Positions 27,908 through 64,000 of a stretch of 64,000 nt of DNA are shown here, piece after piece. The position numbers and the translations under genes are program-made. Origin of the DNA: an uncultured Thiotrichaceae bacterium (lineage in GTDB: Bacteria > Pseudomonadota > Gammaproteobacteria > SZUA-229); contig CAZYYW010000001.1 of the NCBI GenBank assembly GCA_964651445.1, positions 173-64,172 of the forward strand, written 5' to 3'. Every line of letters begins with the position of its first letter. Position 1 is the stretch's first letter. The notes under the pieces are model-generated. The model searched no databases. It was not told where the DNA came from and saw only the letters and a program-made list of their open reading frames with translations.

Positions 27908-27911
27908 ATTT

Positions 27912-32941: not shown

Positions 32942-33055
32942 CATATTGTTACAATAGGGCATATCTCTTGCATGTTAGTATTAAGCTACACAACAAGAAC
33001 TTAAACTAGTTTGACTATTTGATAGTGAGAACAACACTAATCTGCGTAACCTTAT

Positions 33056-33813: not shown

Positions 33814-34107
33814 ATGAGAAATCAACCGCACAAGAAGATACGCATTGCATGGCTAATAAGCTTGTTCCTGCTTATTAGCCAATTTGGTGTAATCCTTCAC
33901 GCTACAGAACACCCGTTCCATGCTGATGATGCTTCGTGCCAACAATTTCTGTTTTGCGAAAAATCAGGCAACGCTCTTATTTCTCATGATTTACAGTCAT
34001 TTCCTCAGGCTAATCATGTATTGGTTATCAGCCAGACAGTTACCGCCTGCTTTTCCTCACCACAAACGGCATATTACGCCCGCGCCCCACCTTTTCGTAC
34101 TCACTAA
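33814..34107 (+). CDS. small secreted His/Cys-containing protein upstream of the metal-uptake genes
   Basis: Signal peptide; HATEHPFHADDASCQQFLFCE. Confidence 0.35.
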   Translation: MRNQPHKKIRIAWLISLFLLISQFGVILHATEHPFHADDASCQQFLFCEKSGNALISHDLQSFPQANHVLVISQTVTACFSSPQTAYYARAPPFRTH

Positions 34108-34169
34108 CATTAATCACTAAAAATTAGTTTTTATTAATTTATCGACAGCAACCATCTGGTGACTGTGGT

Positions 34170-38471: not shown

Positions 38472-38497
38472 TTAATCACTCTTTGTTATTATTCAGG

Positions 38498-41586: not shown

Positions 41587-41588
41587 AG

Positions 41589-42497
41589 TTACCTACCATT
41601 AGGGATGGTTACACACACTTTGTTTCCGCTGCCAATATATTTTACTTCTTTAAAACTGATCAAATTTGCCAGCGCAATACCTCTACCATGACTATCGAAT
41701 GCTCTACTTGGGCTAATTTCCATATACTGGTGCCAATCAAAGCCTTCTCCTTGATCTATTATCAAAATATTAATTTTTTTGTCACTACGACTAAATTCAA
41801 TAGTCACGTGCTTGTCTCTATTTATCGGCAAGTTTATTCTACGCTTAATCTCATTGTCCCATTCACCAGCGGCATTTAATTTTGATTTCTCAGCATATCC
41901 AATCGCTAGATTTCCATGTTCAACTGCATTAACAATTAATTCAGTTAATCCAAGAATAACATTGTCTGATTCAGGGCAAGCATTTGCTAGCAAAGCGGCA
42001 AGATTTCGACCTTCACTTAATGTCTTAAAGCAAAATATTCCGTGATCCATCATTTGTAATGTTTGAGCAGATTGTTTTAGACTTTCCTGCATATCCATGT
42101 ACTGCTGGTAGTCACGGATAGCTGTCGTTGTAATAGCAATTAGTGTTTGTTGGTCGTACGGCTTGGATATGTAGTAATGCGCACCGGCTGTTAGCCCTTC
42201 TAGCATCGGTTCTTTTCCTGCTTTCGCGGTTTGCATAATAACCGGAATCTTATTTGTTTTATCATCTGATTTTATTGCTAATAGTACGTCCATTCCATTT
42301 ACGCCTGGCATCATCCAGTCCAATAGAACAGTACAAAACTTATTAGGCGATTCCTGCAAAAGCAATAAGGCTTTCTCACCCGAGCCTACACAAACAGTTT
42401 CTATATCAATTTCACTAAGATATTCTTGAATGATTTCGAGATTAAATTCTTCGTCATCAACAACTAAAACAACCGGTTTTATATCATCAATAATCAT
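41589..42497 (-). CDS. receiver domain fused to a GHKL anti-sigma-factor-type serine kinase (RsbW/SpoIIAB-like)
   Basis: Canonical REC (VLVVDDEEFN, LLDWMMPGVNG, TAKAG, SKP); N-box ELIVNAVEHGN; G1 IIDQGEGFD; G2 GRGIALA. Confidence 0.75.
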   Translation of the reverse strand: MIIDDIKPVVLVVDDEEFNLEIIQEYLSEIDIETVCVGSGEKALLLLQESPNKFCTVLLDWMMPGVNGMDVLLAIKSDDKTNKIPVIMQTAKAGKEPMLEGLTAGAHYYISKPYDQQTLIAITTTAIRDYQQYMDMQESLKQSAQTLQMMDHGIFCFKTLSEGRNLAALLANACPESDNVILGLTELIVNAVEHGNLAIGYAEKSKLNAAGEWDNEIKRRINLPINRDKHVTIEFSRSDKKINILIIDQGEGFDWHQYMEISPSRAFDSHGRGIALANLISFKEVKYIGSGNKVCVTIPNGR

Positions 42498-44162: not shown

Positions 44163-44518
44163 TGCCCAACCCCGACTTTATCCCTCGTTTCAGTATTGAT
44201 TCCACAAGTATAATTGATGGTAAATAACTGCTCAAAATTAGCTACTTTCAAAATGGTATCAACTTGTTTGCTGGGGCGTTCTATAAATACTGCGCCACCA
44301 TGACACTTTGCATGCTCACGCAGCAACAGCAACATGCCCAATGCAGAACTGTCCATATAATTAGTATCGCTTAAATCAACGTAGTAGGACATGCTGTCTT
44401 GGCCTGTAATTCGACGATAGCTATCCCTGAATGCTTGGGACACTTTATAATCAAATCGTCCACTTATATTGATGTGTACTTTTTTTCCGTCGCTAGACAC
44501 TTCTTGACTTACAGACAT
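44159..44518 (-). CDS. STAS-domain anti-sigma-factor antagonist (HsbA/RsbV-like)
   Basis: 119 aa; STAS fold with conserved phospho-serine region DSSALGMLLLL; 4-nt overlap with the downstream gene. Confidence 0.8.
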   Translation of the reverse strand: MSVSQEVSSDGKKVHINISGRFDYKVSQAFRDSYRRITGQDSMSYYVDLSDTNYMDSSALGMLLLLREHAKCHGGAVFIERPSKQVDTILKVANFEQLFTINYTCGINTETRDKVGVGH

Positions 44519-49335: not shown

Positions 49336-49522
49336 TTTTTATCCCACACCCATATTATATTTCTGAAAATGAAACGAGCAATGTATTATATACTCAAGTA
49401 AATCATACTATAGCTGTCATCGCCACATGATTATGTTTCTTTAGTCGAAAATGCTCATTCGTAAAATAATGACAATGCTAGCCATAATGCATTGCCCATT
49501 CTAAACCTCACAGGCTTTTATT

Positions 49523-51967
49523 ATGCAAAACATCAACAATCGACCACATAAGAACAATATATTAATCGTCGATGACGATGCCACTATCCGCCTACTGATG
49601 AATGACGCATTAACAGATGACGCTTACAATATCACTGAGTCTGTCAATGGTTTTGATGCGTTAGCCTATATCGATAAAAATCACGTCGATCTTGTTCTTC
49701 TCGATGTCAATATGCCCGGTATGAATGGTTTTGAGGTGTGCACTCGTATCCGCCAATTACCCAATGGCGCTGACATTTCAATCGTAATGGTTACTGCACT
49801 TGAAGATGCCAGTTCCATTGCAAAATCTTATGATCTTGGTGCAACAGATTTTATTAGCAAGCCCATCAACTGGGATACCTTTCCTTATCGTATTCAATAC
49901 TTAATCAAAGCCAGAAACGCTATTGTAGAAGTAAAAAATCATAAGTCACACTTGGAATACATGGAGTTCATTTCCAGAATTATCACTCAAAATACAACCA
50001 AAGACAGCATTATGCAAGAGACCATGTTAGCAATGCTTGATATATTTTCAGCTGATCGCGCCGTGTTACTGCAGCCGAATAAAAATAAGACGGGGTCATA
50101 TACTGTCGATTTTGCAACCACTCGAAACTCCGTCAGTGGCAGCATGTTAACCACACTGGTAGCAGAACCTCTGGAAGATAACATCTTATATCGAGCTGAC
50201 CGTTCTGAATATCCGATATTTTCCAAATATAATATCGATAATCCTGCTCCAGATCAAAACAAAGCACTAAAGCAACAAATGATAACCAGCTTGAATTTAA
50301 AACAGGCGCAAAACTGGTACCTGATCATCCAGCAATACACAACCCAAGAAGACTGGACACCTCCGGAACATGAAACATTCTATAAGATTGGCTTGCGCAT
50401 AACCAACATGCTATCCCAACACTTATTGACTGAGGAACTTCGTCAAAGTGAAGAGCTACTTAAACAGTCACAAAAACTAGGTCACCTTGGAAACTGGCAT
50501 TGGAACCCGGTAACAAATAAACTGACATGGTCTGACGAAGTTTATAGAATATATAAATTAAAACGTGATAACCATGAGCCTGACTTTCAACAGTACTTCA
50601 AAATTAGCTTTGAAGAAGACACGACTCGTTTGGACCTAGTTAAGGAAATTCAAAACAAAACAAGCCATTCTTATCAAATAACCCATCGCATTCGAACAGC
50701 TGATAATGACATAAAATGGCTACACGAGCAGTGTCTAGGGGTTTACGAAAAATCAGGAGAACTAGTTGAAATTAGCGGCATTGTGCAAGATATAACCGAG
50801 TCTCACAATAAAAAAGAGCAGGAAGTACACGACAATAAAATGGATGCTATTGGACAATTGACCAGTGGCTTAGCCCATGATTTTGGTAATTTCATGACGG
50901 TTGCGCGAGGCAATCTCGAATTGCTGGAAGATATAATGCTCAATGAATACAAAGCTAAAAGCGATGATATGGAATTACTTGAGGATGCCTATTCAGCAGT
51001 AAATGACAGCGTGGAACTGATTAAACAACTGCTCGCCTTTTCACGTAAAAAGTCTATTTCTCCCGTTTACGTCAATGTTAAAGCGACCGTTGAAAAGTTT
51101 ACTAAATTATTTCAAAACACACTTGGCGACAGCATCAAGCTTTCAAGCAACATCGATAAAGATCTGTTTGATATTCTTGTTGATCCAACGCAATTTGAAA
51201 GTACACTGTTAAACATCATCATCAATGCACGCAACGCAATGCCTACTGGTGGCGAAGTTTCTATCAATGCTGAGATCCGAAAAACCGCACAATCACGTGA
51301 ACTTATCCGTAACGAAGATCACGATCTTGGTGACGAATGCATCTGTATATACATCAAGGATAATGGCAGTGGTATGAGTGAAGACGTTTTAAAACGCGCT
51401 ATAGAACCATTTTATACGACACAAACAAACCAGGGCACAGGTCTTGGGCTAAGCATGGTATATGGCTTTATAAAACAGTCTAAAGGCGAATTGATAATAC
51501 ATAGCCTACCGGATAAGGGTGCCACTATTTATATGCAATTCCCCATTTACCACGGCAAGGCTATTACAAACAAAGAAGAAATTGCAATCAACAAACTGCA
51601 ACATGCTAAAGCGATTATTCTTATCGTGGAGGATCGCCCTACCGTGAGGCAATTTGCCGTACGCTGTCTAAAGTACCCGGGCATTACCCTTTTAGAAGCA
51701 GACAATGCGCAGGCTGCACAGAAACTATTAAAATCCAAGAAGGTTGATTTGTTATTTACAGATATTTTAATGCCTGGAGAAATGGATGGACATGAGCTCG
51801 CCAACTGGGCAAATCAGAAATACCCGCAATTAAATATACTCTTAACCACCGCCATGGAAAATAAAACCAGTAACAAGATAGTTAGAAATCATCATTTTCA
51901 ACTACTGCCAAAACCTTATAGCAAAAGTGAACTGACAAATAGCATCTCTGGTTTTCTCGTCTCTTAA
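49523..51967 (+). CDS. hybrid histidine kinase: REC, GAF-like region, PAS, HisKA, HATPase, REC
   Basis: N-terminal REC (LVLLDVNMPGMNG); PAS (WHWNPVTNKLTWSDEVYRIY); H-box LTSGLAHDFGNFMTV; C-terminal REC (LLFTDILMPGEMDG). Confidence 0.85.
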   Translation: MQNINNRPHKNNILIVDDDATIRLLMNDALTDDAYNITESVNGFDALAYIDKNHVDLVLLDVNMPGMNGFEVCTRIRQLPNGADISIVMVTALEDASSIAKSYDLGATDFISKPINWDTFPYRIQYLIKARNAIVEVKNHKSHLEYMEFISRIITQNTTKDSIMQETMLAMLDIFSADRAVLLQPNKNKTGSYTVDFATTRNSVSGSMLTTLVAEPLEDNILYRADRSEYPIFSKYNIDNPAPDQNKALKQQMITSLNLKQAQNWYLIIQQYTTQEDWTPPEHETFYKIGLRITNMLSQHLLTEELRQSEELLKQSQKLGHLGNWHWNPVTNKLTWSDEVYRIYKLKRDNHEPDFQQYFKISFEEDTTRLDLVKEIQNKTSHSYQITHRIRTADNDIKWLHEQCLGVYEKSGELVEISGIVQDITESHNKKEQEVHDNKMDAIGQLTSGLAHDFGNFMTVARGNLELLEDIMLNEYKAKSDDMELLEDAYSAVNDSVELIKQLLAFSRKKSISPVYVNVKATVEKFTKLFQNTLGDSIKLSSNIDKDLFDILVDPTQFESTLLNIIINARNAMPTGGEVSINAEIRKTAQSRELIRNEDHDLGDECICIYIKDNGSGMSEDVLKRAIEPFYTTQTNQGTGLGLSMVYGFIKQSKGELIIHSLPDKGATIYMQFPIYHGKAITNKEEIAINKLQHAKAIILIVEDRPTVRQFAVRCLKYPGITLLEADNAQAAQKLLKSKKVDLLFTDILMPGEMDGHELANWANQKYPQLNILLTTAMENKTSNKIVRNHHFQLLPKPYSKSELTNSISGFLVS

Positions 51968-52211: not shown

Positions 52212-53327
52212 ATGAACAACGCTGTACTACAAGACAACAGTATGCTGAATAATAAGCGACCTAAAGAATTGTTCCGAAGCTTGATCGGAAAAAGCCCGAC
52301 AATGCAGCGGGTACATAAAGACATACGGCAGGTGGCTAATAGCTCTGCCAATGTTTTAATTCTTGGCGAGTCAGGAACCGGAAAAGAAGTTGTCGCACGC
52401 AATATCCATTACTTTTCTGACCGTTGCAAAAATGCATTTGTGCCGGTTAACTGTGGCGCAATTCCTCACGAGTTATTGGAATCAGAGTTATTTGGTCACG
52501 AAAAAGGGGCTTTTACTGGTGCAATCACATCTCGTCCGGGGCGCTTTTCAATGGCGGAAGGTGGCACTCTATTTCTTGATGAAATAGGCGAGATGACTAT
52601 GGCAATGCAAGTGAAGCTGTTAAGAGTACTAGAAGAACGTGTGTTTGAACGTGTTGGCGGTACAAAAACTATTCATTCTAATGTCAGGATAATCGCTGCC
52701 ACTAATCGTAACCTTGAAGAAATGGTTAAACAGGGAAGCTTTCGTGAAGACCTCTATTTCAGATTAGATGTTTTCCCCATTCACTTACCGGTATTACGCG
52801 AGCGTATCGAAGACTTGCCATTGTTAATTAAAGAATTGGTTACTCGTCTTGAAACAACCAGTAATAACAGCGTTCGGTTCACTCAAAATGCGGTTGTAGG
52901 CATGTCCAAATATGATTGGCCTGGCAACGTGCGCGAACTAGCAAACCAGATCGAAAGAATGTCAATACAACACCCCAATGGCCTGGTTCATGAAAGTGAT
53001 TTACCCAACAGAATAAGAGCCAGTGCATCATCGACAAATAAAGGTTTACAGCCAGAGCAAATAGATGACTGCAACAGCCAACCACAATACAATCGACCTG
53101 TAGTTGTAGATGACGGACACTTTAATTTTCCAGTTGAAGGTTTTGATCTTAAGTCATACATTTCAAGCATCGAAGTGAAAATCATTCAAGATGCTCTTGA
53201 TGAGACGGGTGGTGTAGTCGCACATGCCGCAAAAACACTTGGCTTGCAGCGTACCACGCTTGCCGAAAAAATGCGAAAACATCATATCGACAAAAAGCCG
53301 GAAGCTTCTAGTCATAGTGTTTGTTAG
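52212..53327 (+). CDS. sigma54-dependent transcriptional activator of FleQ/FlrA type that lacks the N-terminal receiver-like domain (AAA+ plus Fis-type HTH only)
   Basis: Walker A GESGTGKE followed by VVARNIHY (FleQ-type post-Walker-A R-N); GAFTGA sigma54-contact motif; LFRS motif at the N-terminus; C-terminal HTH. Confidence 0.85.
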
Positions 53328-53398
53328 TTATAAAAGTCAGTGCCCCTGTTTTATTTGAATACTTCAGCTAGCTGCTGTTGCTTTCACATTAACCATAA

Positions 53399-54352
53399 CT
53401 ACAGCGTGGCATCATCTACACCGACGCTATCTTGCTGAACAGTTACAGCCACTTCGCCTTGTTCTCCATCAATTTGTTTTTCCTCTGGATCATCAACGAT
53501 AATTTTGTTTGAATAATCCATCATAATTTCAACGCGGCGATTTTTAGCACGGCCGCTAAACGTTTCATTTGAAGCGATTGGCTGCGTATCGGCAAACGCG
53601 GATATTTCAAGTGTTTTATACCTTAACACCTCATCCTTCACTAGCTCATGTATGACACTGGCTGCTCGCGAAGATGATAATTCCCAGTTGGATCGAAAAC
53701 GATAAGTATTAATGGGAACATTATCCGTGTGACCGGCAACGATAACGACACCATCAAATTCACTAAAAACCTCACTAATTTTTGACACAACGACCTTGAA
53801 CGGCTCAATGACGTCAGCACTGCCTGAAGGAAACGAACCTTTCTCTCTGACTAAAAGGATAATTCTTTTTTCAGTAATTTTCATCTCGATCAAACCATGA
53901 CTAATTTCTTCCTCCAATGAAGCTTTCAATAGTTTACTGTCCCTGCGAATTCGTTCGATTATTTTTTTATCCTGCTCACTTAGTGTTGGTTTTGTCTCTT
54001 TACTCTCCTGCCCTTTTTCTGATGGGTCTGTAAACACAGGATGCCGCTTAGTTTCATCCGTTGTCATTTGTCGCACTTCATTAATCGGTGTTGGTTGTGG
54101 CCGCCCTGGACTAAACTCACGAGCAATAATATTAATGCCACGAGGTGATTCTTGTGCTTTGATTTCTCGCTGAACACCAAAGGCGTCTTTTAATGAACCA
54201 GCTAGTTCTTTATATATCGCAATATCCATTGAAGAAAAGGAAAACAGTAAGACAAAAAAAGCCAGTAACAATGACATCAAATCTGCAAATGTCATTACCC
54301 ATGCAGGTATACCGTCGGGACATTTATGCTCTTCTTCCAAAGCTTCACTCAT
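53399..54352 (-). CDS. motB: flagellar motor stator protein MotB/PomB family (OmpA-like C-terminus)
   Basis: N-terminal TM with conserved Asp (FADLMSLLLAFFVLL); OmpA-like peptidoglycan-binding C-terminal domain. Confidence 0.85.
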   Translation of the reverse strand: MSEALEEEHKCPDGIPAWVMTFADLMSLLLAFFVLLFSFSSMDIAIYKELAGSLKDAFGVQREIKAQESPRGINIIAREFSPGRPQPTPINEVRQMTTDETKRHPVFTDPSEKGQESKETKPTLSEQDKKIIERIRRDSKLLKASLEEEISHGLIEMKITEKRIILLVREKGSFPSGSADVIEPFKVVVSKISEVFSEFDGVVIVAGHTDNVPINTYRFRSNWELSSSRAASVIHELVKDEVLRYKTLEISAFADTQPIASNETFSGRAKNRRVEIMMDYSNKIIVDDPEEKQIDGEQGEVAVTVQQDSVGVDDATL

Positions 54353-54363
54353 AACACAAACCT

Positions 54364-55146
54364 TTAGGCGGCCGCTTTCTTGGCTTTAGCTTTTCCATTT
54401 TTTTCTGGCGGTAAATAAACACTCAGCAAACCTTCTATCATACGAGGATTCAAACCTTCCTGAATCGCGCTAATACTCTCCAAAATCATTGATTTGCTGG
54501 TACGTTCTTGTTTACTTCGCAATGCCAGTTTATCGGCAATAGGCAACGCAAAAACGGTCGCAATGACTGCACCATATAGAGTAGTCAGTAATGCAATCGC
54601 CATTGCAGGGCCAATAGATTTAGGATCGCTCATATTGGACATCATTTGCACCAGACCGATCAAGGTACCTATCATGCCCATTGCCGGCGCCACATCACCC
54701 ATTGCCTTAAAGATGTTCAAGCCAGCTTCATTACGTTCAATAGACATGGTGATTTCTTTAGAAAGGATTTTATTGACCAACTCAGGTGGGTTGCCATCAA
54801 CCACCATCGTTATGCCCTTGGCAAGAAACTCATTTTTGACTTCAACATTTTCCAGGCCGAGCAAGCCTTCCTTCCGGGCAACATTTGCTAGTTCCAAGCT
54901 CTGCTCAATAATTTCACTCGGAAGCTGAGCCTTATGAACAAAGGCTTTAAGAGCCACGCCAAAAGCACCGAGCATATCAGGCAGTGAAAACTTCATGGTA
55001 ACAATTGCAAACGTGCCGGCTATAACAATCAAGATACTCGGCCCATTGACAAACATGCCCATTTCACCGCCCATCATAATGGCTGCAATAATACAGCCTA
55101 TGGCAGTCAAAATACCGATAAGTGTTGCTAAATCCATACCTTTCAC
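54364..55146 (-). CDS. motA: flagellar motor stator protein MotA/PomA family
   Basis: 260 aa, 4 TM, MotA/TolQ/ExbB channel family; upstream of motB. Confidence 0.85.
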   Translation of the reverse strand: MKGMDLATLIGILTAIGCIIAAIMMGGEMGMFVNGPSILIVIAGTFAIVTMKFSLPDMLGAFGVALKAFVHKAQLPSEIIEQSLELANVARKEGLLGLENVEVKNEFLAKGITMVVDGNPPELVNKILSKEITMSIERNEAGLNIFKAMGDVAPAMGMIGTLIGLVQMMSNMSDPKSIGPAMAIALLTTLYGAVIATVFALPIADKLALRSKQERTSKSMILESISAIQEGLNPRMIEGLLSVYLPPEKNGKAKAKKAAA

Positions 55147-55445
55147 CTTGCTTATTGCACAATTTCGAATTTAAAATACACGCATGTTTTGCTTGCGCTG
55201 TCACATCCGGTTTCTTCTACTCTATTTAATCGGTCGCCACCGCAGAAGCTTTAGTAGAAATTTGATATGAATCCGCTTGAAACAAAGGATTTTAGTAATC
55301 GGTATCTCTACGGATGACAAGTCATTTGTAAACTTTTGTAAACATACAATAAACAAAGACTTATTTACTATACAGTCGATAAAATATTTGATATAAAGAA
55401 GCCGCTATATCTGCATTACAGCAAGTTAATTGCGCCATTTTTGAT

Positions 55446-56177
55446 TTGACTTTATTAAAGGAAATTATGAATAGTACTAAAATTTTGTTTATTGATGACG
55501 ACCAACGAATATGTCGCCTGGTTAAAAGATACCTGCAAAACAATCATATCGAGATGATTGCTGCCCACAATGCCAGAGATGCACTCAATCTCCTGCACGA
55601 CGACAGTATCACCTTAATACTGCTCGATATTATGCTACCGGATATGGACGGTCTTACGCTTGCACAAAAAATCCGTTTATCATCTGAAATACCCATAATT
55701 TTCCTCACCGCCAAAGCCGAGATCGAAAACAAAGTCATCGGGCTAGAAATTGGAGCCGACGATTACATTACCAAACCGTTTGAAGAAAAAGAACTGATTG
55801 CCCGAATACAAGCAGTGTTGCGCCGCACCCAAAATACAACAACTCATGACAACGACAAAACCAAGGCAAATTTTGCCGGTTGGTGCCTCAATTTACTTAG
55901 TCATACACTGCATTCGCCCGATGGCACAGTTGTAGACATCACCAGCACTGAGTATCGTCTGCTGACCAAGCTGGTCAACCGCTCAAATCGAATCATCAAA
56001 CGCGAAGAAATTTTACACATACTTTCTAACCGTGAATGGTCACCGCTGGATCGATCCGCAGATATGGCGATATCCAAATTACGCAAAAAAATCGAAAAAA
56101 ATCCACGCAGACCGGAAATCATCAAAACCATTCGCAACCACGGCTACCAGCTCACCGCTGCTGTGAACTTCAACTAG
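55446..56177 (+). CDS. OmpR/PhoB-family response regulator (REC plus winged-helix); orphan, divergent from motA
   Basis: REC (ILLDIMLPDMDG); C-terminal winged helix (IIKTIRNHGYQL). Confidence 0.85.
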   Translation: MTLLKEIMNSTKILFIDDDQRICRLVKRYLQNNHIEMIAAHNARDALNLLHDDSITLILLDIMLPDMDGLTLAQKIRLSSEIPIIFLTAKAEIENKVIGLEIGADDYITKPFEEKELIARIQAVLRRTQNTTTHDNDKTKANFAGWCLNLLSHTLHSPDGTVVDITSTEYRLLTKLVNRSNRIIKREEILHILSNREWSPLDRSADMAISKLRKKIEKNPRRPEIIKTIRNHGYQLTAAVNFN

Positions 56178-56246
56178 CAAGTCATTTTTTAACGGGGCTT
56201 TGCTTCTTGTTATCACGCCCAACTCAATACTTGCCCTATGCCTCTC

Positions 56247-57059
56247 TTATGTGTGACATATTTCTAGATGATTAGCACTGCGTTTCGCTGAAAAACGATG
56301 TGTTAACTGCTTTTCTCGCCAAATAAAACCAGATGCTTTTGGCACTGTATAACGCACCTCAAAGACATCAATATCATCGCAGCTATTTGCGCTGTAATTC
56401 ATCTGTAGCCTTGCCTGTTTCATAATGTGGATGTACTCATTGTCCGTTTCGATGGTATAAGACTGCAATACAGCGTTTTTATAATTATTACTCTGGGTAA
56501 ACATCCACAAATATTCAATAATCATTTTAACCTTATCGGCCGTTAATTCTGTCATGGTTATTCTGCCACGGTAATGCCCATCTTCATCATTGCGATCGAC
56601 ACCTGTTCGATCCAATACACTGGCTTTAAAAACGCGATGCATATTTATAAATTCAGGTAATGAGGGGTCGAATCGTGAGAACTGGAAATACAACAATGTC
56701 TCTTTATTAGCAGACAATTGCTGATACGAAACCTGGTGCTCTGCCGCTTTTTCAGACCAAGACATGGCTTCAATAAAATCATCACTGGCAAGATCATATG
56801 CTGTCATACCTGCTCTGGCAGAGACGGGTAACAGGCTAGTGTTTTTTACATGGCTAATCGAATAGAAAATATCTTGGTAATTGTTTTCTTTATAAAAATC
56901 ATCAGGAACTCGTTTATCAAAATACAACGCTCTGGCAGTGGCAAGATCTCCAGTCAAAGGCGCACTATTTTTATTGGTCACCGCAGTATCTTCTGAGCTG
57001 CTACAACCCGATAACAACTGTACGGCTATGACAAGCAATATTAGCCCGCTATATTGCAT
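56247..57059 (-). CDS. hypothetical lipoprotein (likely start MQYSG at 57059)
   Basis: Lipobox LLSGCSSS after a hydrophobic h-region. Confidence 0.5.
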   Translation of the reverse strand: MQYSGLILLVIAVQLLSGCSSSEDTAVTNKNSAPLTGDLATARALYFDKRVPDDFYKENNYQDIFYSISHVKNTSLLPVSARAGMTAYDLASDDFIEAMSWSEKAAEHQVSYQQLSANKETLLYFQFSRFDPSLPEFINMHRVFKASVLDRTGVDRNDEDGHYRGRITMTELTADKVKMIIEYLWMFTQSNNYKNAVLQSYTIETDNEYIHIMKQARLQMNYSANSCDDIDVFEVRYTVPKASGFIWREKQLTHRFSAKRSANHLEICHT

Positions 57060-57290
57060 GAACTGGAAGCGACCATTGGCCTCATCGTTACACATCAACA
57101 GGGGTTTACACATCGAGAGGGCTTTAATTATCATGCCGTATTTTTAATCTATTGAGTTTCATCACCCAATATATCGACGCGACACTATTTATCTTTAACC
57201 GCAGCACGACCATTCGTCGGAATGATAAATGGTCGTGCTGCGTTAATTAATTAACGCCAAGAGTATTTCTATTAGAGCTGCCTACAGCAA

Positions 57291-58130
57291 TTAGACAAGA
57301 AGGGATTGTCGCGCTTTTTCATACAATTGTTGATTTTCTTTAATTTGCAAAAGATTAACATCTGAATCCATGCCTAATCTAGAAAATGCGGGGACTAGGC
57401 ACCAATCATCAGGCGAATGCTCCTCAGCAACATAACCACCTTGTAATAATGCGACCTGTACTAAGTTAACCAGATTTGTGCCATCTTTCTGTTCATAGTC
57501 AAAGTTATGGCTTTCCTCGACCACTTCAATTAAATCATTGGAAAAGTTCCAACTGCGTAACATCAAAGCACCTATGCGACCTTGCAATGCATGGACAACG
57601 GATTTTAATTCTTTGGCGTCATTAAATAGCGCTTTATCATTGCCGGCAATAGCCAGCAAAGGCAAGGCACCAATGTTATGGATAAGACCAGCCAACAAGG
57701 CTTGTTCTCTGCGGATGCCACACATTGATGCCGTCATCATTTGGCAAATGGCTGCCACATTGACCGAAACACTCCATGTTTTCCTGAACTGTTTATCCAT
57801 AACCGGGGATGTTGGCTTAAAGATTTGTTTCATCGCAAGATTGGTAATTAAGTCCCTTACCATTTTCCCGCCGAGCCGAGTAACGGCTCTTTGCAAATCC
57901 TCAATAGGCACTTCACCGCGGTATAATGGGCTATTAACCACCTTCAGTAACCTTACCGATAAAGCTGCATCTTGGCTCAGGATATCAGCAATCTGTTCAG
58001 TTGTTGTCTCTTCGTGATCAACAGCTTCTCTTATTTTCAACGCGACTTCTGGCAGTGACGGTAGTATTATCCGATCTTCATTAATGGCTAGCTCTAGCTT
58101 ATTATAAAAGTCTTCATGTTCGACGCTCAT
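57291..58130 (-). CDS. HDOD-domain protein (paralog 1)
   Basis: LPSLPEVALKIREAV...LLKVVNSPLY; HNIGALPLL. Confidence 0.8.
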   Translation of the reverse strand: MSVEHEDFYNKLELAINEDRIILPSLPEVALKIREAVDHEETTTEQIADILSQDAALSVRLLKVVNSPLYRGEVPIEDLQRAVTRLGGKMVRDLITNLAMKQIFKPTSPVMDKQFRKTWSVSVNVAAICQMMTASMCGIRREQALLAGLIHNIGALPLLAIAGNDKALFNDAKELKSVVHALQGRIGALMLRSWNFSNDLIEVVEESHNFDYEQKDGTNLVNLVQVALLQGGYVAEEHSPDDWCLVPAFSRLGMDSDVNLLQIKENQQLYEKARQSLLV

Positions 58131-58258
58131 TTTAACTACTTATCCATCACATATTTTATGTTAAATAATACTGCTATTGATTGTATCGGCAGGTAAAAGC
58201 TATTATTTATTATAGCTTTATTATTTCAGGGTGAAGAAATTGGACGTTTCTTCTTTTA

Positions 58259-59101
58259 TCAAATCATCAACGATTGCCTGGCATCATTGAGCAGTTCCTC
58301 ATTTTCTTCTATATGAATAACATCTACTTCTGCATTCATGCCCAATTTTTCAAATGCTGGAATTGTAGACCAATCCTCCGGACACAGATCATTGGAGATA
58401 AAGCCACCCTGTAGCAAGGTAAACTGAACCAGATCAACCATATTCGCGCTGCCTTCATGCTCATATTTAAAGTTATGGCATTGGCTTACAACTTCAATCA
58501 ACTCGTCTGAAAAGTGCCAGTTTTCTAATATAATAGCGCCAACACGACCTTGTAATTCCTGAATAAGCTGATCCATCGCTTGCTGATCATGAAACAAATA
58601 ATCATCTTCCTCAGCCATCAATAGTATGGGTAATAAACCAATGTTATGCAGTAAACCTGCCAGTAAGGCCTGTTCTTTTTTAACGCCGACTTCCATCGTT
58701 GCCGCCATCATTTGACAGATGGCCGCTATGTCGACAGACGTTTTCCATGCCGATCTGAACTGTTTTTCCATCATCACGGATGTCGGTTGATACATTTGTT
58801 TCATGGAAAGATTGGTTACCAAGTCGCGCACCAAACTGCTGCCCATACGGGTAACAGCCATGTGTAAATCCTCAATCGGCATTCGGGTTCTATACAGAGG
58901 GCTGTTCACTATCTTCAATAAACGTGCAGACAGTGCACCATCCTGACTAAGAATGTCAGCAATTTGCCCACTTGTGGTGTCTTCTCTTTCAGCGACATCG
59001 CGTATTTTTAACGCCACATCAGGTAAAGAGGGTAATTCAATTCTATCTTCTTCGACGGCTTCTTGTAGCTTACTAAAAAACTGCTCAACGTCTGTACTCA
59101 T
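58259..59101 (-). CDS. HDOD-domain protein (paralog 2; likely start MSTDVEQFF at 59101, 9 nt after an AGGA RBS)
   Basis: LPSLPDVALKIRDVA...LLKIVNSPLY; HNIGLLPIL; collinear with paralog 1. Confidence 0.8.
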   Translation of the reverse strand: MSTDVEQFFSKLQEAVEEDRIELPSLPDVALKIRDVAEREDTTSGQIADILSQDGALSARLLKIVNSPLYRTRMPIEDLHMAVTRMGSSLVRDLVTNLSMKQMYQPTSVMMEKQFRSAWKTSVDIAAICQMMAATMEVGVKKEQALLAGLLHNIGLLPILLMAEEDDYLFHDQQAMDQLIQELQGRVGAIILENWHFSDELIEVVSQCHNFKYEHEGSANMVDLVQFTLLQGGFISNDLCPEDWSTIPAFEKLGMNAEVDVIHIEENEELLNDARQSLMI

Positions 59102-59217
59102 AACGGTTCTATCCTGTTTTGTTTTCTCATAAACTTGCCAAGCTATTGAAAGATACAAGTCGTTAATTAATCGACAGCATTTATATTTTCTTTAACAATA
59201 TTATTTTCTCGGTTTAA

Positions 59218-59973
59218 TCACGCAGTGATCTCTTGTTCAGTCCACTCGGTCATTCGTGCGCGAAGACGTAATAGAGCCTGGCCGTGTATCTGACAAACCC
59301 TCCCTTCGGTAATCCCCAGAATCTCACCTATTTCACGCAAGTTGAACTCCTCGTCGTAATACAGTGCCATTACCATTTTCTCTCGTTCAGGCAAATGCTC
59401 TATTTTATTAACCAGTCCTTGTTTAAAATCTGCTTCCTGTAATTCCTTTAGAGGGTTATTAAAGTCACAGCTTTTATATTCATCCGCACAGCCTCCAGCA
59501 GAGGCTATATCTTCGTAGCTTAATAATTGGCAGCCGGCGGCATCCTTTACCATACGATAATATTCTTCGATGCCAAGTTGCATATGTTCGGCAATTTCAC
59601 TGTCTGTAGCATGGCGGCCATGTTCACTTTCAATTTGTCGAATGGCTTCTGATAGCTCTCTTGATTTTTTATAAACAGAGCGTGGCGTCCAATCGCAACG
59701 CCGTACTTCATCAATCATTGAACCTTGAATTCGAATCCGAGCATAGGTTTCAAAACTTGCACCTTTACTCATATCATAGCCTTTTAAGGCTTCAAATAAC
59801 CCAATCATGCCAGTTTGCACGATGTCTTCCAATTGTATGCTAGAAGGTAATCGCGTAATCATATGGTAGGCAATACGTTTAACAAATGGTGCATATTCCG
59901 TCATCAATTCATCATAATTCGGTGCATCACCTGAGATAGAACCAACTTCAGCGTAACTGGACATCGATGCCAT
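59218..59973 (-). CDS. fliA: flagellar sigma factor FliA (sigma28)
   Basis: Sigma70 regions 2-4; stop overlaps the flhG start. Confidence 0.9.
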   Translation of the reverse strand: MASMSSYAEVGSISGDAPNYDELMTEYAPFVKRIAYHMITRLPSSIQLEDIVQTGMIGLFEALKGYDMSKGASFETYARIRIQGSMIDEVRRCDWTPRSVYKKSRELSEAIRQIESEHGRHATDSEIAEHMQLGIEEYYRMVKDAAGCQLLSYEDIASAGGCADEYKSCDFNNPLKELQEADFKQGLVNKIEHLPEREKMVMALYYDEEFNLREIGEILGITEGRVCQIHGQALLRLRARMTEWTEQEITA

Positions 59974-60884
59974 TAGCTGACCTCCTGAGACACCATTGAA
60001 AATTGAGATTTGTCAGCTTGAATCATACGTTCCATAAAAAATTTCATTTGTCCATCAGATCGTGTGCGTTCAGGCCAGCTATCAATTTGCCGAGTAATTC
60101 GTTTAAACGCCAATGCTGAGGGCGAGTGAGGAAAGGCATCAACCACCGCTCTTTGGTGTTGAATGGCTTTACGCAACTTTCCATCAAACGGTACTGCGCC
60201 AACAAATTCCAACACCACATCTAAAAAACGGTCGGTCGCTTTTGACAACTTATTGAATAGTTCACGGCCTTCACGCGCATCATGTGTCATGTTCGCCAAA
60301 ATATGAAATTTACCAACGTTCAGTTTTCGACTCATGACTTTTATGAAAGCGTAAGCATCTGTAATAGAAGCAGGTTCATCATGCACCACAACAATGATTT
60401 CCTGCGATGCGCCACAAATATTGATAACAGTGTCAGCAATGCCAGCACCGGTATCGATAATCATGACGTCAACGGCAAAACTTAAATCACTAAAAGCATT
60501 AATTAACCCCATCTGTTGTGCAGGGTCTAAATTAGCCATATCACTTATTCCGGTTGATGCTGGAATAACTTTTATATTTGATGGTCCGTTAACAATGATT
60601 TCTTCCAGAGTACGTTCGCCACGCATTACGTGAGACAAGTCGTATTCTGTATTTAAACCGAGCAAAACATCAACGTTCGCTAATCCCATATCAGCATCCA
60701 TTAACAAAACTTCTTTGCCTTGTTTCGCCATCGACAGCGCAAGATTAACCGATACATTGGTTTTACCTACACCCCCTTTACCGCTACTTATAGCGATTAT
60801 TTTTACCGGGCGAGGTGCAACAACACGGCGTAAACTTTCTGCCTGATCCAGATTGCGTCGCATTGACACTTTAGATGTTTCCAT
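59973..60884 (-). CDS. flhG: MinD-like ATPase FlhG/FleN (flagellar number regulator)
   Basis: Deviant Walker A SGKGGVGKTN; between flhF and fliA. Confidence 0.9.
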   Translation of the reverse strand: METSKVSMRRNLDQAESLRRVVAPRPVKIIAISSGKGGVGKTNVSVNLALSMAKQGKEVLLMDADMGLANVDVLLGLNTEYDLSHVMRGERTLEEIIVNGPSNIKVIPASTGISDMANLDPAQQMGLINAFSDLSFAVDVMIIDTGAGIADTVINICGASQEIIVVVHDEPASITDAYAFIKVMSRKLNVGKFHILANMTHDAREGRELFNKLSKATDRFLDVVLEFVGAVPFDGKLRKAIQHQRAVVDAFPHSPSALAFKRITRQIDSWPERTRSDGQMKFFMERMIQADKSQFSMVSQEVS

Positions 60885-62154
60885 TATTATTTACCCCACC
60901 AAAGCTATAGGCCAACTCTTCGTCTGACACTGAATTTTTTAAACATCGCATTAACTTTACAGCCTCTTTTACCAGCAACTTACCGCGTGCACGATGCAAA
61001 TCATCCGGTACTTTCTGACCGTCACAAACAAAGGCTACCGGAAGATCATGCTGAATAAGAACTGAAATTATTTCACCGAGGCTGGCTGTTTCATCTATTT
61101 TTGTAATGACACAACCCTCAAGGTTTTCTTTGCCAAAGCTGTTAACCACATCATCCAGTAAATTCATTTGCCCTGTTGCTGATAATACCAGGTAATTTTT
61201 TATATCCATATCTGGGTAATGTTTAGTGGTTATCAAATCATTTAAGTTAAGACCTTTCTGACTGAGTCCAGCGGTATCTATCAGTGTTAGGTTATGCTCT
61301 CCAGATTTTTTTTGAACTTCGTTTAACAAGTTTTCAAGTTCTTCTGCATCGCTTGCAACGTGAACAGGTATACCCAGAATACGACCATAACTACGCAGTT
61401 GTTCATGCGCACCAATACGGTAGTTATCAGTGGTGATTAATGTCACACCGCGACGACCGTGTTTTAATGCAAACCGGGCAGCAAGTTTAGCGATGGTTGT
61501 CGTTTTACCAACACCTGTCGGACCTATCAGGGAAACTATGCCACCATTGGATATAATATCCTGATCACTAATCGGCACCAAATAAGAAAGATAGTTTAAA
61601 GATTCCAACCAACTATTTTTACTCAAACCCTTTTTTTCAAGCTTACTGGCAATGCCTCGGCTTAACCCGGGACTAATACCCAACGTTATCAACTGTTTTA
61701 ATAAGTTGGCATACAAGGGTTGCACACGGCTTGTTTCGCTCCAGGAAAATTGCATCAGCGGTGCTTCCATGATGTTTCTTAAACTGGCCAATTCATCTTG
61801 AATTTTATCCAGCGTTGTTGTACTAGAATTTGTTGACGACTCGAAGTTTGTATTCTCTACTAGACTATCGAATGAAGATTTTTGATTTGTTGATGTGTCC
61901 ACTTTCATATTGTCAGGGCTGGCAACCGCGTTACTCTGCTGTACACTATTTCGATACGGATCTATTTCGCTAAGGGTATCGGGATTGCCAAGAGATGTCT
62001 GTACCATTGCATCTTCATAATCCATCGCAGCAATAATTTCTACACCACCATTAACTTGCCGGTTAGATAAAATTACCGCATCTGAGCCCTGCTCCTCGCG
62101 CAGTGCACGCATTGCCTGACGTGAATCCGGTGCAAAATAACGTTTCATTTTCAT
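60871..62154 (-). CDS. flhF: SRP-type GTPase FlhF (flagellar placement); likely start MKMKRYF at 62154
   Basis: G-domain GPTGVGKTTT, DTAG, TKID. Confidence 0.85.
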   Translation of the reverse strand: MKMKRYFAPDSRQAMRALREEQGSDAVILSNRQVNGGVEIIAAMDYEDAMVQTSLGNPDTLSEIDPYRNSVQQSNAVASPDNMKVDTSTNQKSSFDSLVENTNFESSTNSSTTTLDKIQDELASLRNIMEAPLMQFSWSETSRVQPLYANLLKQLITLGISPGLSRGIASKLEKKGLSKNSWLESLNYLSYLVPISDQDIISNGGIVSLIGPTGVGKTTTIAKLAARFALKHGRRGVTLITTDNYRIGAHEQLRSYGRILGIPVHVASDAEELENLLNEVQKKSGEHNLTLIDTAGLSQKGLNLNDLITTKHYPDMDIKNYLVLSATGQMNLLDDVVNSFGKENLEGCVITKIDETASLGEIISVLIQHDLPVAFVCDGQKVPDDLHRARGKLLVKEAVKLMRCLKNSVSDEELAYSFGGVNNNGNI

Positions 62155-62270
62155 ACCGCGCTCCATTGAACAATTGCAGTTATGTAGCCCACTGCCCAAA
62201 AGGCACACACCAAAAACAGCAAACTATTTTTTTTGATATTGTTATACATGTCATTCATTATTATCTCCTG

Positions 62271-64000
62271 TTACGCAGCTTTTACTTTTTGACCACCGAC
62301 TGCTGCGACAACTTTAATGTTTTTACTGTCAGGAACCTCGTTATAAGCTAATACATGCAGATTTGGTGCCAAGCTTCTTAATAACCTTGCCAATGATGTC
62401 CGAATCACTGGAGAAACTAATAAAACGGCTGCGTTATTTTCAACTTCTTGCTGTTTGATACAGAGATTCAGCTCCTGAATCATCTGTTCTGCTAACCCTG
62501 GCTCCAGCCCTAAACCCGCATTTGACGCGCTTTGTACGGACTGCTGCAATATTTGTTCCAATTCGGGGCTTAAAGTGATGACGGCCATTTCTTCCGCCAT
62601 ACCATTTATATTTTGATAAATCTGACGTGACATCGCGGTGCGTACTGCGGTGGTTAAAACGTCAGAGTTTTGGCTTTCGCTCGCATGTTCCGCCAAAGTT
62701 TCGGCGATGGTACGCATATCACGAATCGGCACACCTTCAGCAAGCAAGTTCTGTAGCACCTTCACGACTATGCCCAGCGGTAACACTTTAGGTACCAAAT
62801 CTTCCACCAGTTTAGGCGACTGTTTCGCCAACATTTCCAACAGATGCTGTACTTCTTCATGACCAATCAACTCATGTGCATGCTGGCCTAATAGGTGGCT
62901 TAAATGCGTTGCCACCACTGTGCTGCTATCCACCACGGTATAACCCAACGTTTGCGCTTCATCACGCATGTTCGGCTCTATCCAGACCGCTTCCAGGCCA
63001 AAGGTGGGGTCTTTGGTTTTTATGCCTTTAACATTGCCAAAAACCTGACCAGGATTAATCGCCAGTTCTTTTTCTGGATAAGCCTCACCCTCACCAACCG
63101 GCACACCCATTAATATAATGCGATATGCATTGGGTGAAAGATCAAGGTTGTCCCTTATGTGCACCGCTTGTATAAGAAAACCAAGGTCCTGCGAAAGCTT
63201 TCGACGTACACCTTTAATGCGTGACATCATTTGCCCGCCCTGATTTTTATCAACCATTGGAATCAAGCGATAGCCAACCTCTAGGCCAACAACATCCACT
63301 ATAGGCACATCATCCCAGCTTAAATCTTTAAGCTGTGGCTCGATCTCCTCGCCTTCCAGATCGACAACCTCTTGCTGCTCACTGAGCTGTTGCTGTTGAT
63401 ATAAATAGTATGCAACCGCACCAAAAACGGCACTAAGTGATAAAAATACTAAATTAGGCATGCCTGGAATCAGGCCGAGACTACCAACGATGCCAGCAGT
63501 AATTGCGATTGGTCGAGGTTTGTTCAACAACTGACCGATTACTTGCTCACCCACATCTTGCGAAGATGAGTCACGGGTCACTGCAATGGCTGCTGCCGTA
63601 GACAAGATTAAAGAAGGAATCTGTGCCACCAGACCATCACCAATGGTCAACAGTGTGTAGTTATGCGCGGCTTCTGAAAAGGCCATATCATGCTGTATGA
63701 CTCCGATACCCAAGCCAAAAATAATATTAATAAATAAAATCAATATTGCCGCAATCGCGTCGCCCCGAATAAACTTACTGGCACCGTCCATAGCGCCATA
63801 AAAATCCGCTTCACCGGTAATTTCTTGCCGCCTTGCCTTTGCCTCATCCTGTGTAATAAGACCGGAATTTAAATCTGCATCGACTGCCATTTGTTTTCCT
63901 GGCATCGCATCTAATGTAAAACGCGCATTGACTTCTGAAATACGCCCAGCACCCTTGGTCACCACCACAAAGTTGATAATGGTTAGCACCGCAAAGACCA
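62271..64000 (-). CDS. flhA: flagellar export apparatus protein FlhA (C-terminal part; N-terminus lies beyond the window edge)
   Basis: TM region plus FlhA cytoplasmic domain; ORF runs off the right edge. Confidence 0.9.
   Translation of the reverse strand, partial: VFAVLTIINFVVVTKGAGRISEVNARFTLDAMPGKQMAVDADLNSGLITQDEAKARRQEITGEADFYGAMDGASKFIRGDAIAAILILFINIIFGLGIGVIQHDMAFSEAAHNYTLLTIGDGLVAQIPSLILSTAAAIAVTRDSSSQDVGEQVIGQLLNKPRPIAITAGIVGSLGLIPGMPNLVFLSLSAVFGAVAYYLYQQQQLSEQQEVVDLEGEEIEPQLKDLSWDDVPIVDVVGLEVGYRLIPMVDKNQGGQMMSRIKGVRRKLSQDLGFLIQAVHIRDNLDLSPNAYRIILMGVPVGEGEAYPEKELAINPGQVFGNVKGIKTKDPTFGLEAVWIEPNMRDEAQTLGYTVVDSSTVVATHLSHLLGQHAHELIGHEEVQHLLEMLAKQSPKLVEDLVPKVLPLGIVVKVLQNLLAEGVPIRDMRTIAETLAEHASESQNSDVLTTAVRTAMSRQIYQNINGMAEEMAVITLSPELEQILQQSVQSASNAGLGLEPGLAEQMIQELNLCIKQQEVENNAAVLLVSPVIRTSLARLLRSLAPNLHVLAYNEVPDSKNIKVVAAVGGQKVKAA

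Follow-up and report, generated by a model that had tools for sequence, protein, structure and literature searches.

A Polar Flagellar Locus without Local Chemotaxis Genes in an Uncultured Thiotrichaceae Bacterium: A Conserved HDOD, Lipoprotein, Stator and Regulator Module Downstream of fliA

Introduction

What takes the place of the chemotaxis genes in a polar flagellar locus that has none? The question is raised by a 64,000-nucleotide (nt) stretch of DNA from an uncultured Thiotrichaceae bacterium (GenBank assembly GCA_964651445.1, contig CAZYYW010000001.1, positions 173 to 64,172), hereafter called the window. In this stretch fliA, which encodes the flagellar sigma factor sigma-28, is followed by two tandem genes for HDOD proteins, a predicted lipoprotein gene, an OmpR-type regulator gene, the stator genes pomA and pomB, and a gene for a FleQ-like activator. 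A preliminary description took the HDOD, OmpR-type and FleQ genes to have replaced the chemotaxis (che) block and proposed that the output of the flagellum is governed by HDOD proteins and cyclic di-GMP (c-di-GMP) rather than by chemotaxis.

We compared this locus with its relatives and arrived at a different reading, in which we place moderate confidence: within a clade of uncultured Gammaproteobacteria, this region forms the conserved late-gene end of the polar flagellar locus; here the che cassette is absent, the HDOD/lipoprotein/OmpR/pomAB/FleQ-like module is resident, and switching by CheY has probably been kept. New here are standalone HDOD genes, and a lipoprotein gene without known family, that apparently belong to the FliA regulon and lie beside the stator; a natural FleQ paralogue that lacks the N-terminal domain and keeps the c-di-GMP contacts; a cassette-like che block; and a plasmid-type replicon lying between flagellar clusters.

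Results

The Junction Downstream of fliA

Genes in the window were called from a list of open reading frames (ORFs) combined with Pfam and NCBIfam profile searches (Table 1). The gene order was as previously described, with flhA-flhF-flhG-fliA on the minus strand, followed by the two HDOD paralogues, the lipoprotein gene and pomA-pomB, and with the OmpR-type and FleQ-like genes on the plus strand. The system is of the polar type, as had also been proposed, since FlhF and FlhG are present and PomA scores above its equivalog cutoff. The cutoffs of the PomA equivalog and MotB-family models were both exceeded by the stator pair, which by profile would belong to the Na+-type stator family. No MotX or MotY was recognized among the window ORFs covered by the general profile scans; these partners may be encoded at another place in the genome. 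The spacer between motB and the FleQ-like gene is 71 nt long.

The lack of che genes was borne out for the whole window by tblastn and by the profile scans. Searches with CheY, CheZ, CheA, CheW and a methyl-accepting chemotaxis protein (MCP) from a related locus that has the block (L002) returned only cross-matches to REC, HATPase and ParA domains (CheV, CheR, CheB and CheD were not used as queries), and scans of nearly all of the larger window ORFs with Pfam and NCBIfam found no che domains. The site directly downstream of fliA lacks cheY-cheZ-cheA(-cheB), which are present there in L002, L094, L095 and L097. The second usual polar che site, where cheV-cheR stand beside flgB, is likewise empty, as flgA-flgM-flgN-flgB are contiguous at 15642-18139.

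The order fliA-HDOD-HDOD-lipoprotein-OmpR-pomA-pomB-activator, together with flhF-flhG, was also found in an independent 9.4-kb Logan contig from the same organism (L001). In five contigs of one relative (L005-L008 and L092), which derive from four sequencing runs, the series fliL/M/N-...-flhA-flhF-flhG-fliA-HDOD-HDOD-lipoprotein-OmpR-pomA-pomB was recovered; the HDOD1 and FlhA proteins of this relative are 85% and 92% identical to those of the window, respectively. Thus, the junction is not an artefact of assembly.

The che Block in Related Lineages

Related loci were gathered from GTDB genomes, from metagenome contigs and from contigs encoding HDOD or FlhA homologues, and their genes were mapped by tblastn and Pfam. 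The comparison of the che block covers nine lineages including that of the window, four with the block and five without it. A single 206 kb contig (L094 and L009) carries, in this order, fliA, cheY, cheZ, cheA, a parC-like gene, an unknown gene, cheW, MCP genes, cheV, cheR, cheB, cheD, and then the HDOD, lipoprotein, OmpR, pomAB and FleQ-like genes; ≈4.3 kb within the MCP stretch, between the two fetched loci, was left unread. In L002 the block is also situated between fliA and the HDOD gene, which follows it directly. In L095 and L097, whose loci stop inside the block, cheY-cheZ-cheA, the parC-like gene, cheW and one MCP gene come directly after fliA. Where it is present, the block measures ≈20 kb and fills exactly the space from the fliA stop codon to the HDOD promoter.

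The block is lacking at this junction in the window, L092, L096, L093 and L017. In L096 the order is fliA-HDOD-lipoprotein-OmpR-pomAB-FleQ-like, with a single HDOD gene, while in L017 fliA-HDOD is followed by yebC and other housekeeping genes. In L093, a 1.55 Mb contig (ERZ25073254 ctg89706), fliA is followed by a 116-residue ORF, then by the lipoprotein, OmpR, pomAB, PilZ and FleQ-like genes, with no HDOD gene. The 116-residue ORF (L093, 15582-15932) is membrane-like, has a sigma-28-like box and stands in the place of the HDOD gene. The PilZ-domain gene (L093, 20010-20609) lies between pomB and the FleQ-like gene, where the window has none.

The block HDOD-lipoprotein-(OmpR)-pomA-pomB-(FleQ-like)-(REC-PAS-HK-REC) recurs in L003, L009, L011 and L096, with protein identities of 52-88%. 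It is present in L005-L008 as far as these contigs extend (they end at pomB), and in L093 without the HDOD gene. The genes said to have replaced the che block are therefore the constant part of the locus, since they stay while the che block comes and goes: in the L094 and L009 contig they stand directly after a che block, and the same is true of the HDOD gene in L002.

On an FlhA tree, built by neighbour-joining and carrying no support values, the lineages with and without the block are interspersed, which implies that the che state has changed at least three times. Repeated loss or relocation of the block, rather than its insertion, is the simpler reading, because the order in the lineages that have it is identical among them and matches the Vibrio/Pseudomonas pattern. 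In the lineage of the window the che cassette is absent, having been lost or moved elsewhere.

The CheY Docking Motif of FliM

In enteric bacteria, the peptide of FliM that docks phosphorylated CheY (CheY-P) has the sequence LSQxEIDALL. In the three lineages lacking the che block for which fliM could be read (L092, L093 and L096), FliM starts with VNE(H/N)LSQDEIDTLL, and the core LSQDEIDTLL, which matches that peptide, is identical in L094, L095 and L097, which have the block. This strict conservation in lineages without local che genes suggests that a CheY made from elsewhere still acts on the motor; control by CheY probably persists, with the che genes encoded at another place in the genome. 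The proposal that HDOD proteins and c-di-GMP govern the flagellum in place of chemotaxis fits poorly with the intact docking motif of these relatives, with the HN rather than HD motif of the HDOD proteins described below, and with the lack of c-di-GMP binding by SadB, an HDOD protein of P. aeruginosa (PMC12075610).

Table 1. Positions of the features discussed, in window coordinates.
Feature	Position	Strand	Remarks
FleQ/FlrA-family sigma-54 activator, 371 residues	52212..53327	+	Sigma54_activat + AAA_lid_14 + HTH_8; convergent with motB
pomB/motB-family stator B subunit	53399..54352	-	MotB_plug + OmpA; PRK08944 320 bits (cutoff 259)
pomA, stator A subunit	54364..55146	-	NCBIfam NF006527 PomA equivalog 348 bits (cutoff 341)
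Predicted sigma-28-type promoter of pomA	55227..55253	-	TAAAG-N14-ACCGATTA
OmpR/PhoB-family response regulator	55446..56177	+	Response_reg + Trans_reg_C; divergent from pomA
Predicted lipoprotein, 295 residues	56247..57134	-	Lipobox LLSGC; possible start M26 at 57059
Predicted sigma-28-type promoter of lipoprotein gene	57171..57197	-	TAAAG-N14-GTCGATAT
HDOD2, 279-residue paralogue	57291..58130	-	PF08668 E 6e-43
Predicted sigma-28-type promoter of HDOD2	58183..58209	-	TAAAT-N14-GCCGATAC
HDOD1, standalone, 280 residues	58259..59101	-	PF08668 E 2e-43; ORF reaches 59158 from TTG
Predicted sigma-28-type promoter of HDOD1	59168..59194	-	TAAAG-N14-GTCGATTA; one mismatch to local consensus, 67 nt from ATG 59101
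fliA (sigma-28)	59218..59973	-	NCBIfam PRK06986 288.9 bits (cutoff 201)
flhG/fleN, MinD-like ATPase	59973..60884	-	Pfam ParA + AAA_31, MinD-type NCBIfam matches, position flhF/fliA
flhF	60871..62208	-	NCBIfam TIGR03499 249.6 bits (cutoff 174); Pfam SRP54
flhA	62271..64000	-	FHIPEP family; 5' end beyond window
Two ParB-like genes	26913-28871
SopA-like ParA, 393 residues	28891-30072
Rep-like ORF, 370 residues	30267-31379		Divergent from parA/parB
At least 8 iteron-like repeats, core CGTACTAAnnnnGGTTT	31389-31742		Five at exact 22-bp spacing; AT-rich stretch after

Predicted Promoters of the Late Genes

Sigma-28-like boxes were sought with the pattern TAAAG-N14-G[TC]CGAT[AT]A, and all of the sites given here are consensus matches in silico. 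Flagellin and flgM have perfect TAAAG-N14-GTCGTTAA boxes 64 and 40 nt upstream, respectively. Both HDOD genes, the lipoprotein gene and pomA are preceded, at distances of 37-90 nt, by boxes with one or two mismatches (TAAAG-N14/15-GCCGATAA-type), and similar boxes stand before flaG, fliS, flgN, a hybrid kinase gene at 47119, a REC-GGDEF-EAL gene at 44752 and a STAS gene at 44159. There were 35 matches to the box in the window, about three times the 11.4 ± 2.9 obtained in block-shuffled sequence, and where a match precedes a gene, it is in nearly every case on the coding strand. The box upstream of HDOD is kept in L003, L005, L009, L011 and L096, and that upstream of the lipoprotein gene in L003, L005, L009, L093 and L096, while the pomA box is identical in L003, L005 and L009. 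In L005 the site equivalent to the HDOD2 promoter is a perfect TAAAG-N14-GCCGATAA. These patterns and their conservation suggest four separate late (class IV) flagellar transcription units: one for each of the two HDOD genes, one for the lipoprotein gene and one for pomAB. A sigma-54 promoter (TGGCATACGGTTTGCA) is situated 49 nt upstream of flgB.

A simple scan found no intrinsic terminators in the spacers between the HDOD genes. The stretch from HDOD2 to the lipoprotein promoter contains a perfect 14-bp inverted repeat (GCAGCACGACCATT ... AATGGTCGTGCTGC; 57199-57239, minus strand), immediately ahead of the sigma-28-like box. Because it has no T-run, it may be an atypical terminator or a protein-binding site.

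The HDOD Proteins

Two tandem HDOD paralogues do follow fliA, as the preliminary description had it: each matches PF08668 with an E-value of about 1e-43, over profile positions 1-195 of 196. The start of HDOD1 is probably the ATG at 59101, which gives a protein of 280 residues identical to the database protein P0001. The two copies are 56% identical. HDOD1 is the one nearest to the single HDOD of L002, L003, L009 and L096 (62-69% identity), while HDOD2 has a counterpart in the L005/L092 lineage. In a neighbour-joining tree the HDOD2 proteins of the window and L005 group with the single HDOD of L015, and this group is sister to a clade made up of HDOD1 and the single-copy genes of L002, L003, L009 and L011. 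We considered a recent tandem duplication, and rejected it because of the modest identity of the copies and the grouping of HDOD2 with the single-copy L015 gene.

The family is large, with ≈1100 homologues at E <= 1e-20, nearly all of them standalone proteins of 276-281 residues. In an alignment of 25 sequences, the mean column identity was 70% and the motif AGLxHNIGxLP was invariant. The catalytic His-Asp dyad is not present: all 25 have H152-N153 in its place, and H152 is the sole invariant histidine. Matches of the two window proteins to PF01966 and PF13487 were under cutoff. In the Geobacter HDOD protein 3HC1, two iron ions are held by five histidines and one aspartate, and most of these ligands have been lost in SadB (PMC12075610). 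Judging from conserved residues, the family found in the window also looks metal-poor and non-catalytic. The best solved relative of HDOD1 is PDB entry 3i7a (E 2e-41 over residues 7-216).

Standalone HDOD proteins have been linked to motility in Pseudomonas. Deletion of PSPTO_4229, a 273-residue standalone HDOD protein of Pseudomonas syringae DC3000, reduces swimming and its overexpression abolishes it; its fitness profile clusters with che genes, and it depends on R84/R85, two residues placed by prediction in a protein-protein interface (PMC11813219). Two HDOD genes of P. protegens (PFL_0554 and PFL_5871) affect swimming fitness (PMC11004494). The arginine at position 85 is invariant in the 25-sequence alignment of the window family. 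The link to c-di-GMP is less clear. SadB of P. aeruginosa is a proteolysis adaptor that does not bind c-di-GMP, and reports on SadB conflict, binding having been described in P. fluorescens (PMC12075610). There is thus no consistent role of HDOD proteins in c-di-GMP signalling in the literature.

HDOD genes also occur in other settings. Tandem arrays are not special to this locus, as many sediment contigs carry three copies: in L018, L020, L022, L025, L027 and similar contigs, three tandem standalone paralogues lie between sdh/gcvT-like and fadL/riboflavin genes (at about 8200-10830 in L018), with no flagellar genes near. In the window itself, a plus-strand region (22179-26852) encodes a 1283-residue HisKA-HATPase-Hpt-REC-REC-GGDEF-EAL protein and, after a gap of only 3 nt, a third and distant HDOD protein (26034-26852), whose gene is thereby directly coupled to one for a c-di-GMP enzyme.

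The Lipoprotein

The lipoprotein gene at 56247-57134 gave no match to any Pfam or NCBIfam family. Its 58 homologues all come from uncultured Gammaproteobacteria of vents, sediments and similar sources, and the lipobox cysteine (C44) is invariant in 27 of the homologues. The AlphaFold2 model is confident (predicted local distance difference test score of 82). A periplasmic role associated with the motor is a plausible guess because of the predicted sigma-28 promoter and the fixed position beside pomAB.

The FleQ-like Activator and the OmpR-type Regulator

The best PDB match of the FleQ-like protein was P. aeruginosa FleQ (8p53, E 4e-124; also 5exx), and FlrA is another of its best solved relatives. 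The alignment to 8p53 covers chain positions 139-486, corresponding to about residues 137-484 of native FleQ. The N-terminal FleQ/REC-like domain of ≈135 residues is absent, and ≈23 residues precede the AAA+ domain; the AAA+ domain, with its GAFTGA motif, and the Fis-type helix-turn-helix (HTH) domain are complete (PF00158, 249 bits; HTH_8). We considered a pseudogene or fragment, and rejected this because a protein of 370-371 residues is encoded in the same synteny in L009, L093 and L096. The L003 protein is 82% identical. What had been called a truncated FleQ is, in view of the conserved length and synteny, a natural architecture. The FleQ of the R. sphaeroides Fla1 system was not relied on as a precedent for the missing domain, as its domain structure is not stated in the available part of PMC7277832.

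The residues by which FleQ contacts c-di-GMP are R144, R185, N186, E330 and R334 (PMC8335546, citing Matsuyama 2016). The equivalents of all five are conserved in the window protein, and the motifs LFRS, KEVVARN and kELvtR align without gaps. Because these contacts are kept, the FleQ-like protein is a better candidate than the HDOD proteins for a c-di-GMP sensor, and the likelier one if c-di-GMP acts on this locus.

The best NCBIfam match of the OmpR-type regulator was OmpR, at 199 bits and under the cutoff of 331. By this cutoff it is a member of the OmpR/PhoB family only, not an OmpR orthologue. Syntenic counterparts with 70-88% identity are present in L003, L005, L009, L093 and L096. It had been called an orphan, which is not clear, given the two syntenic histidine kinases encoded at 47119-51967.

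The density of c-di-GMP signalling genes around the locus was confirmed: there are five GGDEF/EAL genes in the window, and two of these are preceded by sigma-28-type boxes. On the minus strand at 39880-44518, genes for GGDEF, REC-HATPase_c_2, REC-PP2C (SpoIIE) and STAS proteins follow one another, and the STAS gene is preceded by a sigma-28-like box at a distance of 46 nt. We take this set to resemble the HsbR/HsbA/HsbD partner-switching system of P. aeruginosa, which acts on FlgM.

A Plasmid-Type Module and the Ends of the Contig

A plasmid-type module (Table 1) separates the flg cluster, which extends to 18139, from the signalling and fli/flh part of the window. It has the features of an iteron-type replicon: a Rep protein with homologues on plasmids, adjacent iterons, and parAB. 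Homologues of the Rep-like ORF occur on plasmids of Methylomonas, Ca. Tenderia, Thiodictyon and Bermanella (29-38% identity, E down to 1e-52). One of them carries the annotation of replication initiation protein, and weak TrfA matches were obtained with the C-terminus of the ORF. The Methylomonas DH-1 plasmid has the same divergent layout of rep and parA-parB. Nearby, on the minus strand at 37434-39598, a tyrosine integrase gene and a DUF4172-Fic gene stand beside ZnuA/ABC-3 transporter genes and three family-less ORFs (31908-35537). The GC content is low (0.355-0.37) at 30-34 kb, and this region may be an integrated mobile element. The only att-like direct repeats around the rep, par and integrase genes were weak 22-nt matches of 77% identity, which are unconvincing.

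The window has no tRNA gene and no housekeeping gene in its 64 kb. Megablast of window positions 52-62 kb against plasmids gave no match, and the top FlhA matches in the plasmid database included no clear case of a polar set on a gammaproteobacterial plasmid; the highest-ranking ones were a chromosome-sized Aeromonas record and an 847 kb Pseudomonas record, both ≈60% identical. The database FlhA P0181 is 100% identical to that of the window but has 643 residues, compared to 698-701 in the relatives, so that the 80,573-bp contig probably ends inside flhA, ≈213 nt past the right end of the window. The other 16.4 kb of the contig is then probably on the left side, past fliT (507-827) and an ORF on the opposite strand, and fliE-fliR and flhB are probably not on the source contig.

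Other genes within the flagellar clusters include one for a 507-residue TPR protein between flgL and flagellin (4910-6433, minus strand) and one for a 379-residue SPOR-domain protein directly upstream of flgA (18158-19297, minus strand). L093, L094, L095, L096 and L097 each have two FliJ-family (PF02050) genes in succession, placed between fliI and fliK at about 700-2700.

Discussion

A Model for the Module

In the model that we propose for the resident module, FliA, encoded just upstream, would drive four transcription units: HDOD1, HDOD2, the lipoprotein, which would be of the outer-membrane type, and the PomAB stator. Two regulators keep a fixed synteny on the other strand, the OmpR-family response regulator and the FleQ paralogue that naturally lacks the N-terminal domain. 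The HDOD gene has become tandemly duplicated in the lineage of the window. Its products may be non-catalytic HD-fold adaptors, made together with flagellin and the stator, and could tune motor function or late flagellar expression via protein-protein contacts, as proposed for PSPTO_4229. Any c-di-GMP input would more likely come through the FleQ-like activator and the neighbouring GGDEF/EAL proteins, while CheY-P switching would still operate, with the che genes elsewhere in the genome.

Several points weigh against this picture. The direction of change of the che block is argued only by parsimony with loci of the Vibrio/Pseudomonas type, and the FlhA tree is a neighbour-joining one without support values. 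The che genes placed elsewhere in the genome are deduced rather than seen, and fliM of the window organism lies off the contig, so that the FliM argument is drawn from relatives, the closest at 92% FlhA identity. The sigma-28 sites are matches to a consensus only, and the apparent loss of the metal site was read from conservation within the family. We know of no partner for any standalone HDOD protein. Moreover, the module of L093 contains no HDOD gene at all, and HDOD is thus not indispensable to it.

Alternative Explanations

The junction without che genes might come from a collapsed or mis-joined contig, or from faulty binning, and the source contig is indeed metagenome-derived and ends inside flhA. 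However, the order with two HDOD genes was assembled independently in L001 and in L005-L008 and L092, the version with a single HDOD gene is present in L096, and the spacer between fliA and HDOD1 carries the conserved HDOD promoter, all of which makes such an artefact extremely improbable. More weight is due to the proposal that the flagellum is truly non-chemotactic, with rotation or expression controlled by HDOD proteins and c-di-GMP instead of CheY. Neither of the usual che sites, after fliA or beside flgB, is occupied, and the 64 kb holds no che gene at all; HDOD is duplicated only in the window/L092 lineage, which lacks the block; the window has five GGDEF/EAL proteins and a third HDOD gene; and the PSPTO_4229 phenotypes resemble those of che mutants (PMC11813219). 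In the relatives that do have the che block, however, the HDOD gene sits downstream of it and coexists with chemotaxis, while L093 lacks both the block and an HDOD gene. The FliM docking motif is intact in the relatives without the block, the HD dyad has degenerated to HN, and SadB of P. aeruginosa does not bind c-di-GMP (PMC12075610). We consequently regard a non-chemotactic flagellum as improbable.

A different question is what kind of replicon the contig represents. It might be a plasmid, megaplasmid or chromid with a transferable polar flagellar regulon, perhaps a second set, that uses chromosomal che genes or none. The Rep-like ORF with its plasmid homologues, one annotated for replication initiation, the at least eight iteron-like repeats directly after it, and the SopA-like ParA and two ParB-like genes divergent from it, as on the Methylomonas DH-1 plasmid, all agree with this, as does the absence of housekeeping and tRNA genes; flagellar genes are carried by secondary replicons in Ralstonia, Azospirillum, Sinorhizobium and Sulfitobacter. 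On the other hand, the same module is found on chromosome-like contigs (the 1.55 Mb L093, and L003, where secDF, tgt and cox genes are neighbours), and the FlhA identity of 85-92% to the copies of the relatives fits vertical descent. The integrase and Fic genes beside rep/par suggest that a plasmid-like element of ≈13 kb may sit integrated between the flagellar clusters, and the contig is not closed but ends inside flhA. A flagellar plasmid is therefore possible but rather unlikely. Of the two readings, a plasmid or chromid with a flagellar regulon and a chromosome with an integrated plasmid-like element, we slightly favour the chromosome, because the relatives carry the module on chromosome-scale contigs. 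Going further, the HDOD proteins and the lipoprotein might be unrecognized accessory parts of a PomAB-driven polar motor, with HDOD in the cytoplasm at the stator or switch and the lipoprotein in the periplasm; the HDOD pair might have taken over part of the motor control after the loss of che, and the regulon might reside on an iteron plasmid. This we regard as a doubtful, speculative extension of the resident late-gene module described above.

Implications

The che block, ≈20 kb in length, behaves like a cassette whose boundaries within the polar flagellar locus are precise. The lack of che genes beside fliA is common in this clade, and by itself is no sign of a non-chemotactic flagellum, which calls for caution in genome scans. 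Across many lineages HDOD keeps its position, ahead of the stator genes and, where there is a che block, behind that block. Standalone HDOD proteins form a large family with motility phenotypes in Pseudomonas, and the apparent late-flagellar context seen here narrows the search for their partners to late flagellar, stator and switch proteins. Finally, the FleQ paralogue is a natural experiment, without the N-terminal domain but with all of the c-di-GMP contacts, that could show what that domain is needed for in FleQ.

Comparison with Known Systems

The standalone HDOD proteins PSPTO_4229 and PFL_0554/PFL_5871 resemble those of the window in length (≈275 residues), in the placement of the HDOD domain at about residues 23-210, and in the genetic link of the Pseudomonas proteins to flagellar motility. 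The arginine 85 required in PSPTO_4229 is invariant here. The Pseudomonas genes are not described as FliA-dependent or as adjoining fliA or pomAB in the available parts of PMC11813219 and PMC11004494, whereas in the window the HDOD gene adjoins fliA and is tandemly duplicated. SadB shares the HDOD fold with a depleted metal site and is a protein adaptor in the decision between motility and biofilm (PMC12075610); unlike the window proteins, it has an extra N-terminal YbaK-like domain, and it acts on AmrZ proteolysis. The structure 3i7a is a 281-residue structural-genomics target from Shewanella labelled "putative metal-dependent phosphohydrolase" that has the HNIG motif in common with HDOD1; the entry has no assigned function.

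The FleQ-like protein matches P. aeruginosa FleQ and Vibrio FlrA in the AAA+ and HTH domains, the GAFTGA loop and the five c-di-GMP contacts, and, like FleQ, it is encoded in the same locus as flhG/fleN. It differs from both in lacking the N-terminal domain and in adjoining pomAB and a REC-PAS-HK-REC kinase gene, rather than standing upstream of fleSR. The flagellar clusters on secondary replicons, such as the Ralstonia megaplasmid, those of Azospirillum and Sinorhizobium, and the plasmids of Sulfitobacter and other roseobacters, share with the window a rep/par module in the same contig as flagellar genes; the window contig itself is a possible plasmid.

The closest framework is the flhA-flhF-flhG-fliA-cheYZAB-(motCD / parC-parP-cheW) region of Vibrio, Pseudomonas and Shewanella. 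The window has the same flhA-flhF-flhG-fliA order, a Pom/Mot pair downstream, and the same promoter classes, sigma-54 for flgB and sigma-28 for flagellin and flgM. In its relatives that carry the che block, fliA is likewise followed at once by cheY-cheZ-cheA, a parC-like gene and cheW, but cheB is found with cheV, cheR and cheD, not beside cheA. The window differs in having no che block and in having the HDOD, lipoprotein, OmpR-type and N-terminally shorter FleQ genes as fixed members. A polar locus that we take to be likewise without che genes is that of Legionella pneumophila, flhA-flhF-fleN-fliA-motA-motB, where the stator genes come after fliA as in the window, but presumably without HDOD, lipoprotein, OmpR or FleQ-like genes at that site. 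In this comparison, FliM of the relatives of the window keeps the CheY docking motif.

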